The notes: generated by a model from the sequence alone, not told the origin. DNA of 64,000 bases from an uncultured Candidatus Saccharibacteria bacterium (GCA_964449385.1 CAYUYO010000001.1:36720-100719), one strand, 5' to 3'. Positions 51,363 to 54,165 are shown, counted from the first letter of the stretch. Numbers and translations: made by a program.

Positions 51363-51580
51363 AAATTTAAAAATAAAAATTAATTATTATGCGGGACACT
51401 TTCGGCCGTTCCGACCTTAGTCGTGGACAGATTCGTTTACTATCCGATTTTAATTATAACTCATTTTTATTAAAAGAAAAGTTCTCTCCCACAGATGTGA
51501 AAGAGAGCTCCGTCGTCCAAGGGACCAAGAAATCGAGTTTCCCAAACAAGAACCAAATTCCCAAGAGTCCAAGGACTTTT

Positions 51581-52213
51581 TTACTTGCAGAAGACCAAGA
51601 AATCGGCAGGATCCCAGATAAAGTCAGGATTGTCCCAATCCAAACTGCCGCAGAGCCATAGCTTCGAGGTAAGACACCCCACTAAGAACACGCGCGGGTG
51701 ACCAGCAGAATCGATAATGGGCTCCATCCATATAAGAACCCACTCGTTGTTCGGCTGGTCTTGGCATTGCAGACGCAGTTGAGGACCGACTTCTGGTGGA
51801 CAGAGCTCAAGTCCGAGTTCCTTGGCGCGTTCGTATATCTGGTCGCTCCGGGCACCTTTCTTGAAGCCGAGTTCGGCAAGCGTGACTTTTACAAGATCCA
51901 CCTCGATCGTCTCGGTAGCTACTGTAAAAGCTGGCTTTCCAAGGATGTCGTCGGCCCAGTGGCTGATATCAAATCCGTTGTCCTTCAGGGCTTTGCGGAA
52001 ATCATCAGCGGTCTTGAGGCCGGTGCCAAGGTTGATGGTTTTCCAGATATTGAATTCGGGATCGGGTGAACAAAATGCATTACTGAGAGCTTTCTGCACA
52101 GCCCTGGGGTTTTGAATCCATCTCTGCATCACATCGCCCGAAAGCTCGGGCATGTTCTCGCCGACCACGGCGAGAAATTTGGCAGTCTGCCGATCATAGG
52201 TTTTCGCTGTCAT
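51581..52213 (-). CDS. hypothetical protein in compositionally foreign (~50% GC) cassette
   Basis: Longest ORF of several alternative frames in the GC-rich block; SD AAGGAG upstream of the ATG; no motif recognised. Confidence 0.4.
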   Translation of the reverse strand: MTAKTYDRQTAKFLAVVGENMPELSGDVMQRWIQNPRAVQKALSNAFCSPDPEFNIWKTINLGTGLKTADDFRKALKDNGFDISHWADDILGKPAFTVATETIEVDLVKVTLAELGFKKGARSDQIYERAKELGLELCPPEVGPQLRLQCQDQPNNEWVLIWMEPIIDSAGHPRVFLVGCLTSKLWLCGSLDWDNPDFIWDPADFLVFCK

Positions 52214-52247
52214 TAGCGTTTTCTCCTTTTGCTAGCGGGCTACTTCT

Positions 52248-52299
52248 GTAGTCATAGCCAGTAGACACCGAAAAATCAGTGGCTTTTGGCTATGACTAC
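52248..52299. repeat. perfect 13-bp inverted repeat (gtagtcatagcca / tggctatgactac) with 26-nt spacer, 35-86 nt upstream of ORF 51581-52213
   Basis: Read directly from sequence. Confidence 0.7.
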
Positions 52300-52408
52300 T
52301 AATTCGCAAGTAAATAATGAAAAGAGCTAATTTATTATGTTTAAAGAGTAATACACTAATTAATTTCTGTCAATATTTCCGTGATACATTCTACTCTGAA
52401 GTGCAACA

Positions 52409-52440
52409 TAAAAAAATCACCCAAGAAGGTGATTTTTTTG
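52409..52440. terminator. bidirectional rho-independent terminator (atcacc-caagaa-ggtgat flanked by A7/T7)
   Basis: aaaaaaatcacccaagaaggtgattttttt downstream of the HNH gene. Confidence 0.65.
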
Positions 52441-52471
52441 ATAAGCACTTGAGCCGCAATTTATTTTAGAT

Positions 52472-52525
52472 TAATCGGGTTGCGTCGATAAGAAATTGTC
52501 TTGGCGGGACACTCAGGTTAAGTAT
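52472..52525. repeat. cassette-boundary repeat R1 (taatcggg...cgataagaaattgtcttggcgg + 8-nt variable + ggttaagtat)
   Basis: Matches R2 (53209-53248) and the 3' flank/3' end of tRNA-Ser (54047-54081). Confidence 0.6.
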
Positions 52526-52591
52526 TAATTATTTGAAGGTGTTTTGATGATATTTGTGGTACTCGCTAAGCCAGGCACGTGGGTCGGGATA

Positions 52592-53206
52592 TTATCTTCG
52601 AGCACCGAGAATCTTTTCACACAATTCCACTAGATATTGGCGTAGTAATTTTTCGTCCTTTTCTAAATTTATAAGTTTACGAATCTCTCTTGTCAAAAGT
52701 ATCGCCCTTGCATTTTGAATTACCAGATTATCACCCCTGTCTAATTTCCGATGACAGTTAGGACAAAGATTTAATATATTGAATGATTTTGAGCTTCCTT
52801 TTTCGGCATTTTCAATCCAATGTGCCTTATCTAAAGAACAGTCTTTTTCTCCGCATAGTTCACAGCAAGATCCAACGATTTTTGGTTTATTATTTAAAAG
52901 TTTTTTGTCGCGAGACGGTAAGTTTAACATTTGGACCCACGATCTTCGATGACTACGGAGATTTTTAGCAAAAATTAAATTTCTACTAGATGTTCCCCAG
53001 CGACGCGCAAATAATTTCTGTCCCATTCTCTCACTTAAATATAAATCTTTATAGTCTTTTTCGAACTTAACACGCAATACTTTTTCCATGTCTTTCATTT
53101 TTTGTGGCTTTTCGCCTGGCAGGATGGGTAGAAATCTACCCGTTTTTTTATCTAGTTTTGGATGAAAATTTTTCATAAGATGCTTGAAACTATGTATTTG
53201 GGTCAA
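52592..53206 (-). CDS. HNH-nuclease-domain protein
   Basis: C-terminal CELCGE...DKAHWIEN...NILNLCPNCHRKLD (HNH/Cys4). N-terminal ~100 aa unknown. Possible TTG or internal ATG start. Confidence 0.6.
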   Translation of the reverse strand: MTQIHSFKHLMKNFHPKLDKKTGRFLPILPGEKPQKMKDMEKVLRVKFEKDYKDLYLSERMGQKLFARRWGTSSRNLIFAKNLRSHRRSWVQMLNLPSRDKKLLNNKPKIVGSCCELCGEKDCSLDKAHWIENAEKGSSKSFNILNLCPNCHRKLDRGDNLVIQNARAILLTREIRKLINLEKDEKLLRQYLVELCEKILGARR

Positions 53207-53208
53207 AC

Positions 53209-53248
53209 CGATAATAAATTGTCTTGGCGGTAGCCATGGGTTAAGTAT
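53209..53248. repeat. cassette-boundary repeat R2 (cgataataaattgtcttggcgg + tagccatg + ggttaagtat)
   Basis: 21/22-nt identity with the R1 core; shares the ggttaagtat tail. Confidence 0.6.
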
Positions 53249-53332
53249 CCATGAGAAAGTATCTCACAAGGCTATTTTAACAGATTTCCCGATTGAGAAC
53301 CGAGGCTCTCGGGTCAGACTATATTTTCATTT

Positions 53333-54028
53333 TTATTGAACCGGATGTTTCTTAAGATAGTTATTTATTTTCTCCATTATCCGATCATTCATCTCCATTA
53401 CTTTCAGCACCAACCTATTCGCACGGCTTGCTTTCGCTTGAATATTTTGTTTCCAGAGTTTGGACATCACTTTCGGGTCCTTAGATTCAATATTTGGGAT
53501 CATTAGATTACTGTATCCACCCTCCTTGCCATAGTATCGACGGTGAGTCATCAAAATTCTTTCACTCAAAGTACTTTTAAAATCTTTGTCTTTATCAAAT
53601 TTTTTTAATTCTGTGTCTAGGCGTGCATCCCTAATAATACCGTGGCTAATTATAGTTGAAAGTATTCCCATACTCTTTTCGTCAAAACCAATCCTTAGAC
53701 CTTGATTTACAAACTGAATTACTTTATCGCGATAACCAGTTACTCGAAAAGTAAAATTCTCAATGTGATACAAAGAATTCTCGAAGTGAACAAAGCCAGT
53801 TCGCGAAACAAGATGCCCGCAATCTTTCTTGCTGATACAACTTATCTGATAGTTACACAGTGCTACTGATTCTTGAAGTTTCTGATTAATACGTCGGAGA
53901 TCAGTCGTCAAATGTAACAACTCGTAATGGTAATCTCTTGCGAGTTTAGTAAATCTATTCCCCTGAAAATCAAAGAAAGGTCTCTTCGTTTTCTTTACTT
54001 TTTTCTTACGAATCTTTTTCTTAGTCAT
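53333..54028 (-). CDS. hypothetical protein (Lys-rich N-terminus), cassette cargo
   Basis: 231 aa, no motif recognised. Confidence 0.4.
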   Translation of the reverse strand: MTKKKIRKKKVKKTKRPFFDFQGNRFTKLARDYHYELLHLTTDLRRINQKLQESVALCNYQISCISKKDCGHLVSRTGFVHFENSLYHIENFTFRVTGYRDKVIQFVNQGLRIGFDEKSMGILSTIISHGIIRDARLDTELKKFDKDKDFKSTLSERILMTHRRYYGKEGGYSNLMIPNIESKDPKVMSKLWKQNIQAKASRANRLVLKVMEMNDRIMEKINNYLKKHPVQ

Positions 54029-54075
54029 AGTTTAGGTCCATTTTACTAATCGGGCCTTCCGATACTAAATATTCT

Positions 54076-54165
54076 TGGCGGAGAGGGTGGGATTCGAACC
54101 CACGGTACCCGTAAAGGCACACAGTCTTTCCAGGACTGCCAATTAAACCACTCTTGCACCTCTCC
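54076..54165 (-). tRNA. tRNA-Ser (anticodon GGA), class II
   Basis: Hand fold: acceptor GGAGAGG/CCTCTCC, 3-bp D-stem, anticodon stem CAGTC/GACTG, loop CTGGAAA, long variable arm, T-arm GTGGG-TTCGAAT-CCCAC, CCA encoded. Confidence 0.8.

Follow-up and report, generated by a model that had tools for sequence, protein, structure and literature searches.

Three single-gene cassettes beside a tRNA-Ser gene in a Saccharibacteria genome: a probable composite island of serial site-specific integration

In a 64,000-nucleotide stretch of DNA from an uncultured Candidatus Saccharibacteria bacterium (GCA_964449385.1 CAYUYO010000001.1:36720-100719; the whole stretch is referred to as the window), a 2,687-bp island lies between a tRNA-Ser(GGA) gene and the gene for an MscS protein. 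The island, which spans 51391-54077 with one copy of its CCGC core counted, is probably composite: three recombinase-less single-gene cassettes appear to have been gathered by serial site-specific integration at the 3' end of the tRNA gene, with a large serine recombinase (LSR) likely acting in trans. The cassettes are bounded by a repeat, the island is precisely present or absent among contigs of the same population, the same arms and arrays of them recur in other genomes, and they are associated with one LSR family. The earlier note on this DNA had offered two readings, serial integration at the tRNA-Ser 3' end and an integron-like cassette array. The former is supported by the empty site, by arms around unrelated genes in many species, and by a recombinase family that travels with them. 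The latter holds as an analogy only, as no tyrosine-recombinase family is among the 25 most frequent of those matched near the sites and they contain no attC-type R''/L''-L'/R' palindrome.

Cassette junctions and the empty site

The motif CGATANNAAATNNTCTTGGCGG is found on the plus strand at 52486, 53209, and 54060 with no mismatches, at the sites where a threefold repeat (copies R1, R2, and R3, respectively) had been proposed. A pattern scan of the whole window revealed no further copy, even with two mismatches allowed, and 100 shuffles gave an expectation of 0.00. A repeat search recovered the same family as 23 nt in three copies at 87-100% identity and as 40 nt in two copies that include GGTTAAGTAT, the match between R1 and R2. 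R3 overlaps the 3' end of tRNA-Ser(GGA), ...CTCTCCGCCA, as had been described; the tRNA gene is called intact (ARAGORN; Rfam tRNA, 52.7 bits) and the island begins directly past its ...CCGC. Read along the minus strand, the gene order is tRNA-Ser, a 231-aa gene, an HNH gene, a 210-aa gene, MscS, and DnaG, and each interval between successive repeat copies indeed holds exactly one minus-strand gene.

The repeat had been described as a ~40-nt site. The repetition is real, but the conserved unit is larger, comprising a ~100-nt gene-distal arm, a core, and a 40-70-nt arm on the other side. Searches with nhmmer profiles place the ~100-nt arm at 53228-53330 (E 6.8e-17) and 52505-52603 (E 8.5e-14), and the 40-70-nt arm at 54042-54081 (3.6e-8), 53187-53230 (1.4e-9), and 52437-52507 (3.2e-10). 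The intergenic DNA is therefore almost wholly attachment-site sequence. On the minus strand every boundary has the form left arm (P in a cassette), CCGC, right arm (P' in a cassette): R3 reads tRNA ...CCCACCCTCTCCGC|CAAGAATATTTAGTATCGG, R2 reads ...GGATACTTAACCCATGGCTACCGC|CAAGACAATTTATTATCGG, R1 reads ...AATACTTAACCTGAGTGTCCCGC|CAAGACAATTTCTTATCGA, and the last junction reads ...CGGCCGAAAGTGTCCCGC|ATAATAATT. The core, merely 4 nt long (coordinates in Table 1), is common to five junctions: attB, CTCCGC|ATAAT; attL, CTCCGC|CAAGA; R2, CTACCGC|CAAGA; R1, GTCCCGC|CAAGA; and attR, GTCCCGC|ATAAT. Of the shared elements pointed out earlier, gcgggacact at the end of the last block (51391-51400) does recur in R1 (52503-52512), whereas taatcggg is present in R2 only as the diverged form tatttggg (53197-53204), R2 itself not being truncated. 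Rfam scans matched no known RNA family at the junctions, either in the region at E<=1 or in 18 related loci at the gathering threshold; elsewhere those scans returned tRNAs, one LOOT RNA, and sub-threshold chance matches.

Exact protein look-up with MscS and GroEL retrieved 18 contigs of the same population from many samples, most of them co-linear with the window. Among these, L015 (loci on other contigs are given L numbers) represents a co-occurring strain with an empty site: GroEL is followed by tRNA-Ser and then straight by MscS, with the sequence ...GGGTTCGAATCCCACTCTCTCCGC|ATAATAATTTAATATTTTATTAAATTTATG... This contig joins window position 54062 to 51356 (tRNA-Ser ...CTCTCCGC|ATAATAATT...MscS), and alignment with the window shows a precise indel boundary at exactly 51391-54077. 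Around the join, L015 carries private single-nucleotide polymorphisms (SNPs) in the tRNA acceptor stem and the MscS 5' end, which indicates that it is a genuine second haplotype and not a chimera of the window flanks or a mis-join. The attB sequence it defines is CTCTCCGCATAATAATT. The CCA is encoded in the occupied state only; the L015 tRNA gene lacks it, and the incoming arm supplies it.

The same population provides a second occupied tRNA gene. In L186, tRNA-Trp is followed by P' and a single cassette encoding a 62%-identical paralogue of the 210-aa protein. This cassette and cassette 3 of the window have in common a terminator-promoter-5' untranslated region (5'-UTR) module, ~240 nt in L186 and identical over 226 nt in L002, and the perfect hairpin at 52410-52439 forms its left edge; the loop of this hairpin stands inverted in L002 and L186. 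The 226-nt module acts as an assembler repeat, which explains the breaks of many contigs at window positions 52266-52377. L002 (JGI 3300028161 Ga0265596_1000245, 8857-9161), in which tRNA-Trp is connected with cassette 3 and MscS, was considered as proof that cassette 3 had moved to tRNA-Trp and was rejected, as it is a hybrid of L186 and the window inside the 226-nt module. Another contig, L003, differs from the window at 84 positions, all within 55146-60031 (4.9 kb, on the GroEL side), and at none in the other 14.7 kb. This pattern indicates a mosaic recombination tract in the population and, being confined to that segment, is uninformative on the island.

Attachment arms and a serine recombinase family in other genomes

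To cover other genomes, one-genome-per-species contigs were scanned with a P' pattern, giving at least 120 loci. The 19-nt degenerate pattern yields about half chance matches, and the results were filtered on a CG prefix and then on profile E-values. Among the matches listed, 57 carry the CG prefix, nearly all of them in Patescibacteria metagenome-assembled genomes (MAGs); 29 of the 57 abut tRNA-Ser (gga 7, cga 4, tga 7, gct 11) and one abuts tRNA-Asp. As the tRNA-proximal arm (CCAAGACAATTTnnTATCGG...), P' follows tRNA-Ser genes of four isoacceptors in ~50 Patescibacteria species. Its consensus is CCAAGACAATTTagTATCGGa..agaCCCgAgT, and several loci show a second motif, GCGACYCGAGT, ~50 nt beyond it, mostly with a terminator after. 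All tRNAs seen beside P' (Ser, Asp, and the Trp of L186) end in CCG before CCA. A scan of viral contigs with the site pattern returned chance-looking matches only, which had neither CCG nor tRNA context.

Where P' stands without a tRNA, it is usually preceded by a conserved ~100-nt left arm (P type A) of the form GACCCCGACCCGAGTGCCT - N~30 - AGCCTTATAAT - N~12 - GG(T/C)ACTTAACCC - N6-7 - CCG. In other genomes the type-A profile matches both P|P' junctions and right ends at which P is joined to non-P' DNA (attR); ends of the latter kind are present in L039, L048, L070, L088, L183, and L035. Two further groups of left arms were found. Type B consists of short T-loop-like remnants, GTTCGRA-N14-19-CCG, and includes the right end of L186 and the last junction of the window. 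The window attR arm (51391-51449), which leads into the flank that L015 has at its empty site, is not detected by the type-A profile and was likened, as a by-eye match, to the arms of L186, L070, L122, L032, L028, L080, and L129. The other group comprises displaced tRNA-Ser 3' fragments that start in the T loop. Arrays of two or three junctions 0.8-3.9 kb apart are found in L024, L035, L039, L080, L129, and L189, and L088 contains a one-gene insertion.

Some of these arm arrangements deserve separate mention. In L028, tandem ~85-nt units composed of P' and a type-B P arm, with no cargo, directly follow tRNA-Ser (minus strand; from ~120 nt upstream to 90 nt downstream of P'); these could represent cassettes that are empty or the traces left when cargo was lost. 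The displaced tRNA-Ser 3' fragments (..AAATCCCACCCTCACCG) precede P' in L058 (7560-7660), L076, L116, L035 (5200-5243), and L133, and in L058 an intact tRNA-Ser lies ~80 nt upstream. This arrangement suggests that the same tRNA-Ser genes also serve a second integrase family, whose crossover would be in the T loop.

The last ~35 nt of the type-A arm form a hairpin with the conserved loop (T/C)ACTTAA. Its stems show compensatory changes, being CATGG/CCATG in R2, where the P arm is predicted by folding to terminate in CATGG-ATACTTAAC-CCATG, and CTTGGG/CCCGAG, AGCTGGG/CCCAGCT, and GTGTGGG/CCCACGC elsewhere. Column-wise counting of covariation was dropped because indels shift the register; per-sequence folding, used instead, gave a mean z of -1.7 over 16 sites. 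The hairpin sits in the register of the tRNA T arm, with GGTACTTAACC replacing GGTTCGAATCC. Relative to the tRNA, the T-loop-like motif of type-B arms is displaced by 3-5 nt away from the core, which is not so in type A. The junctions also display a weak dyad symmetry that peaks 2 nt left of CCG|CCA, at 0.41 for P|P' and 0.36 for tRNA|P', compared with ~0.2 at other centers.

The enzyme that travels with these arms was recognized in L110, where a 440-aa protein with Resolvase, Recombinase, and Zn_ribbon_recom domains is encoded beside P'. Homologues with 74-97% identity are found in 13 genome loci, and the gene is likewise adjacent in L182, L183, and L185. In every case its 3' end faces the tRNA, with the stop codon 109-118 nt from the core in L030, L033, L110, and L182. 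Among 110 open reading frames (ORFs) within 3.2 kb of P' sites, 87 were singletons and the LSR was the sole recurrent family (9-11 ORFs). The family is very large: at E<1e-50 it numbers at least 8,000 clusters, and many of its sequences share 80-98% identity even though their labels name different phyla of the candidate phyla radiation (CPR). The closest curated family is CcrB (NCBIfam, 3.8e-40), at 138 bits against a cut-off of 900, far below the level for a Ccr orthologue; the closest solved structure is the SPbeta LSR.

Larger elements contain the LSR themselves. In L110, L182, and L183 the recombinase is inside the element, whereas the window island has none. The family members on long contigs that were inspected number four (L182-L185). 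The complete element of L183, ~17.3 kb, encloses the LSR and has tRNA-Ser(gct)|P' at one end and a type-A P arm at the other. L182 has the order LSR, P', tRNA-Ser(gct), in an element with a type I restriction-modification (RM) system and a cyclic-oligonucleotide-based antiphage signaling system (CBASS), and in L185 the LSR is followed, after an OLD-family ATPase, by P' and tRNA-Ser(gga). In L184, a search of 10 kb revealed no site. Across L182, L184, and L185 the defense cargo includes type I RM, CBASS (SMODS with patatin, SAVED, CD-NTase with Cap15), the OLD-family ATPase, and ParB-methyltransferases. TraG/TraC-like genes are nearby in L182 and L183, on the opposite side of the tRNA. In a tRNA-Ser-integrated element of L098, a LOOT RNA (RF03000, 83 bits; 2038-2159, minus strand) is located ~200 nt upstream of the LSR gene (tblastn, 2372-3661).

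Homologues in IMG/VR extend the association. LSRs with at least 68% identity again stand beside P' and tRNA-Ser, and clades of 45-67% identity show the same geometry at tRNA-Asp, Glu, Asn, Trp, and Gln (within L190-L223). Distant clades lie 125-146 nt from tRNA-Asp, tRNA-Glu, and tRNA-Gln (L200, L209, L219) and, further off, near tRNA-Asn, tRNA-Trp, and tRNA-Gln (L212, L215, L216, L220), always in the same orientation. These neighbors indicate that recombinase clade and tRNA target co-vary, and the whole LSR family appears to be tRNA-targeting.

Cargo genes and other features of the island

The three cargo proteins gave no recombinase-family match in Pfam or NCBIfam. The 231-aa protein matches Pfam PF18730 (31.2 bits; cut-off 27.1), the HEPN ribonuclease type of Cthe_2314. 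Its HEPN motif, RILMTH, conforms to Rx4H, and R157 and H162 are invariant in 21 homologues. One homologue directly follows tRNA-Ser(cga) in L181, and another is accompanied by a type-A P arm in the tRNA-Ser array of L189. The HNH protein retains an intact CxxC...H...N...CxxCH motif and matches Pfam HNH (1.1e-3) and HNH_2, PHROG HNH families, and the HNH region of IscB in NCBIfam (1.8e-5). Its ORF could begin at TTG 53206, giving 204 aa (52592-53206); gene callers start at ATG 53176. PADLOC and PHROGs gave generic HNH matches only and none for the HEPN or the 210-aa protein.

The 210-aa gene is the GC maximum of the window, at 52.1% GC and 59.7% at third codon positions, compared with a window mean of 32.6% (SD 3.7%), in keeping with the contrast in composition first pointed out. 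The protein had been called an unknown; it belongs to a family of diversity-generating retroelement (DGR) variable proteins with 747 homologue clusters. In L174 a homologue follows a reverse transcriptase (RT) gene and an Avd fragment, and an upstream copy of its last 138 nt has 86% identity (4281-4418 and 6501-6638). All 23 of the 23 core mismatches between this variable repeat (VR) and the upstream template repeat (TR) fall at template adenines, the DGR signature. In L129 an RT lies beside a 210-aa homologue between two P' sites (2733-5062). Neither an RT nor a TR is found within the 64 kb around the window gene, which therefore is best regarded as an orphan member of the family. The cassettes carry zero SNPs among the 18 contigs, hence no sign of DGR activity. 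The AlphaFold2 model of the 210-aa protein has a mean confidence (pLDDT) of 89.7; a Foldseek search of the PDB gave no significant match, the weak ones being the carbohydrate-recognition domains of Mincle and MCL (TM 0.3-0.4, E > 1).

The flanks of the 210-aa gene are conserved as well. Its family has a 5'-UTR with a conserved 12-bp hairpin, GTAGTCATAGCC...GGCTATGACTAC (52248-52299), that has a variable apical loop and is followed by AGAAGTAGCCCGCTAGCA and a ribosome-binding site. A like layout, with TTGACA-N17-TATAAT, is present in L174 (5905-5990) and L186 (4700-4790). The hairpin matches nothing in Rfam and resembles a cis-regulatory RNA. An array of N3-CTTGG repeats begins immediately behind the stop codon, as in L174 (6640-6700) and L186 (4150-4215). 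It is possible that these repeats are an array resembling the initiation-of-mutagenic-homing site of DGRs or one that binds protein. The reverse complement of CTTGG, CCAAG, equals the initial bases of the P' arm.

Table 1. Features of the tRNA-Ser island, listed from the tRNA gene to the MscS side
Feature	Position	Strand	Details and basis
tRNA-Ser(GGA)	54076-54165	-	T arm and acceptor 3' strand form the target-side arm (B) of attL; ARAGORN, Rfam
R3, attL	54042-54081	-	Core CCGC 54078-54081 and P' arm of the HEPN cassette (CCAAGAATATTTAGTATCGGAAGGCCCGATTAG); pattern, nhmmer
Cassette 1 cargo: HEPN ribonuclease, Cthe_2314-like, 231 aa	53333-54028	-	Cassette 53227-54077, 851 bp
R2 junction	53187-53330	-	Type-A P arm of the HEPN cassette 53228-53330, core 53227-53230, P' arm of the HNH cassette 53187-53226
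Cassette 2 cargo: HNH endonuclease, 194 aa	52592-53176	-	ATG 53176; cassette 52504-53226, 723 bp
R1 junction	52437-52603	-	Type-A P arm of the HNH cassette 52505-52603, core 52504-52507, P' arm of the third cassette 52437-52503
Perfect bidirectional terminator-type hairpin, AAAAAAATCACC-N6-GGTGATTTTTTT	52410-52439		Inverted-repeat search
Promoter-like TTGACA (52368-52373) and 5'-UTR of the 210-aa gene	52214-52373	-	Inverted repeat
Cassette 3 cargo: member of a DGR variable-protein family, 210 aa	51581-52213	-	Cassette 51391-52503, 1,113 bp
Cassette 3 3' region: about seven N3-CTTGG repeats (51511-51578), then terminator-like hairpin (51483-51506)	51483-51578	-	Sequence, terminator scan
attR: degenerate T-loop-type (type-B) P arm of cassette 3 (...GGTCGGAACGGCCGAAAGTGTC) and core 51391-51394	51391-51449	-	
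B' arm: native tRNA-Ser flank (ATAATAATT...), running into the MscS start codon	51363-51390	-	L015

Beyond the MscS gene, the DnaG primase gene (958 aa; 47652-50528) holds an intein with a LAGLIDADG homing-endonuclease domain (Pfam).

Mechanism, alternatives and relation to known systems

The junctions suggest how the island could have been built. A cassette would have the layout P' arm, own promoter or terminator where present, gene, P arm; attP would be P-CCGC-P', and attB would consist of the tRNA T arm and acceptor end, CCGC, and the native flank. On integration, P' would be joined to the tRNA (attL), which would gain its encoded CCA, and P would be joined to the downstream DNA (attR). Crossover would occur within CCGC, probably at the CC of tRNA positions 71-72, to which the weak dyad symmetry would point; every junction contains this CC. 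The next arrival would target the tRNA-P' junction and push older cassettes outward, so that the newest would stand beside the tRNA. Such re-use accounts for R3 as an attL, for R2 and R1 as hybrid P-core-P' junctions, and for 51391 as the attR. Native flanks are diverse, AT rich, and partly P'-like (in L015, AATTTAATAT; in P', AATTTAGTAT), which makes the regenerated tRNA|P' junction a plausible next target. The enzyme would most likely be the conserved Patescibacteria LSR, encoded on larger defense-island elements with the same arms and acting on the cassettes in trans. We speculate that the CCTTATAAT box in the P arm, which points across the core, could drive the next gene of the array or, in a circle, the cassette's own gene.

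Several points weigh against this mechanism. No LSR homologue is encoded in the 64-kb window (tblastn), so that the earlier remark that no integrase is visible is right for serine recombinases; the rest of the genome is outside the data, and action in trans is an assumption. Of the 8-kb loci with a P' site, only about a quarter contain an LSR. Canonical LSRs recombine attP with attB only, which makes re-use of attL and P-core-P' junctions atypical, though Ccr recombinases are permissive. Among the contigs only the whole three-cassette block is present or absent, and no partial array or circular junction was recovered; a circle of the whole island would show GAAAGTGTCCCGC-CAAGAATATTTAGTATCGG, and single-cassette circles would show CATGGCTACCGC-CAAGAATATTT and GAGTGTCCCGC-CAAGACAATTTATTATCGG. 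L002 is probably an assembly chimera or a product of homologous recombination. The dyad symmetry is weak, the window attR arm was assigned to type B by eye only, and the covarying hairpin of the P arm hints at a function as folded DNA or RNA, which an LSR that binds double-stranded DNA does not require.

A rival view is that the cassettes are integron-like or otherwise hairpin dependent, with folded single-stranded junctions recognized by a tyrosine recombinase or an HUH enzyme and with the LSR as frequent cargo. The cassettes of the window are indeed short (0.7-1.1 kb), single-gene, recombinase-less, and co-oriented, and the type-A arm has a hairpin with a conserved loop and a covarying stem. 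The integron core-site consensus is GTTRRRY/RYYYAAC, which GTTAAGT/ACTTAAC fits. However, ACTTAAC is in the loop of the hairpin, the junction contains no complementary GTTRRRY (R' box), and there is no attC palindrome. Of 89 families matched near 55 P' loci, the 25 most frequent include no tyrosine recombinase, cargo at other loci occurs in both orientations, and the LSR has a fixed orientation, a spacing held to 109-118 nt in four loci, and clades that co-vary with the tRNA target. We consider this explanation improbable.

It is still less probable, indeed very unlikely, that the HEPN and HNH genes, with or without the 210-aa gene, form one vertically inherited defense or toxin-antitoxin operon in which the repeats have a regulatory or processing role, for example as promoters or tRNA-like punctuation. 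The three genes share the orientation of the tRNA, HEPN and HNH domains are typical of defense effectors, and the P arm places a TATAAT-like box (CCTTATAAT) toward the next gene and a T-arm-like hairpin beside ...CCGCCA. As a sole explanation, however, an operon is contradicted by the empty-site haplotype and by the family-wide distribution of the arms, which elsewhere flank ~100 unrelated genes. Neither the HNH nor the 210-aa genes accompany the HEPN family in L178-L181, L187, and L189, the 210-aa family stands without the other two in L174, L176, L186, and L129, and PADLOC gave only weak single-domain HNH matches. The earlier suggestion that the nuclease and its neighbor are a small defense or addiction module is not supported: attachment junctions split the genes, the families occur apart, and no PADLOC system was found. 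The HEPN, HNH, and 210-aa genes are independent acquisitions. A processing or promoter role of the arms beside mobility could exist. The notion that the repeat is a native conserved tRNA 3' trailer, duplicated locally by chance or slippage with no mobility, would explain why P' follows intact tRNA-Ser genes in many species and why native AT-rich flanks are partly P'-like. Yet the three other tRNAs of the window lack the motif, as P' is lacking behind the tRNA-Ser of L015, tRNA-distant P' is always preceded by a P arm, and zero chance matches are expected; this notion has already been refuted.

With serial integration by an LSR as the preferred reading, the closest mechanistic analogue is the staphylococcal cassette chromosome (SCC), in which LSRs integrate elements at the very 3' terminus of a single conserved housekeeping gene, rlmH (PMC6222049). 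As in SCCmec, psi-SCC, and the composite islands of SCC and the Enterococcus cassette chromosome, cassettes are stacked in tandem, the integration-site sequence is repeated at the junctions, and recombinase-less members are presumed to have been moved in trans; CcrB is also the best NCBIfam match of the LSR. Unlike SCC, the target is tRNA-Ser, the recombinase is a single gene instead of a ccrAB pair and is not of the Ccr family, the cassettes are as small as 0.7 kb, the arms are ~100 and 60 nt with a T-arm-like hairpin, and the hosts are Patescibacteria. Integration at tRNA 3' ends with regeneration of the tRNA, and integrase clades that partition by tRNA, have been described for tycheposons (10.1101/2020.12.28.424599) and in Islander (PMC4383910). 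In those islands, as proposed here, newer arrivals push older ones outward and remnants accumulate. However, they are overwhelmingly driven by tyrosine recombinases and duplicate a long part of the tRNA, whereas here an LSR is associated with a core of 4 nt at the acceptor-stem tip, and the distal arm mimics a T arm in diverged form (loop ACTTAAC) instead of copying the host tRNA.

Like the cis-mobilizable elements (CIMEs) of streptococci, the window cassettes are integrase-less DNA bounded by att sites and probably formed by accretion. CIMEs stand beside integrative and conjugative or integrative and mobilizable elements, arise by integration of these into a resident attL or attR, and can be mobilized by the neighbor's recombinase. 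In contrast to CIMEs, there is no adjacent integrase-bearing element in the window, each cassette has one gene, and another species has the same type of cassette, with HEPN and a type-A arm. Integron cassettes are similarly arrays of short, mostly single-gene, recombinase-less units at a fixed platform with a structured junction, and the newest may be nearest the platform; here, however, the window encodes no IntI, an attC palindrome is absent, and a tRNA gene serves as the platform. Moreover, cassette 3 has its own promoter-like element, and genes lie in either orientation at other loci. The 210-aa family resembles DGR variable proteins, the L174 homologue having adenine-only VR/TR substitutions with an RT and Avd fragment adjacent, whereas the window copy lacks RT and TR in 64 kb, shows no variation among 18 contigs, and rides on an att-bounded cassette. 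Serial tRNA integration that leaves remnants and recombinase-less segments is thus of a known kind; the tRNA-3'-end LSR family, the 4-nt acceptor-tip core, the long arms with a T-arm mimic, the single-gene cassettes, and the Patescibacteria-wide spread make this a new variant. A literature search, incomplete in its coverage, found no description of this CPR system.

A bolder proposal, which we regard as possible though doubtful, is that tRNA-Ser 3' ends, together with a few other tRNAs ending in CCG, constitute a superphylum-wide integron-like "cassette platform" of Patescibacteria, at which one LSR loads, stacks, and exchanges promoter-bearing mini-cassettes and the distal arm is a functional T-arm mimic. 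The cargo may then include defense nucleases, DGR targets, NUDIX and Fic proteins, and others, in units as small as one gene, and the distal arm may act as a hairpin recombination signal or as a tRNA-like signal for RNA processing or expression. If true, this would be a distinct class of gene-cassette system and not ordinary island accretion.

The Patescibacteria, or CPR, have tiny genomes, and gene exchange among them is little understood. The locus described here defines, at the level of sequence, the attachment arms and their core, the unoccupied site, and an enzyme candidate. Together these appear to describe a way of acquiring genes that is very widespread in the group, where recombinase clusters number at least 8,000 and sites adjoin tRNA-Ser genes of four isoacceptors; this route delivers defense genes (RM, CBASS, OLD-family, HEPN, HNH) as well as DGR targets, some of them as single-gene recombinase-less units. 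Genome engineers may be interested in the natural att variants and in an LSR that is compact and targets a tRNA end, and P and P' profiles would let accessory DNA in CPR MAGs be delimited systematically.

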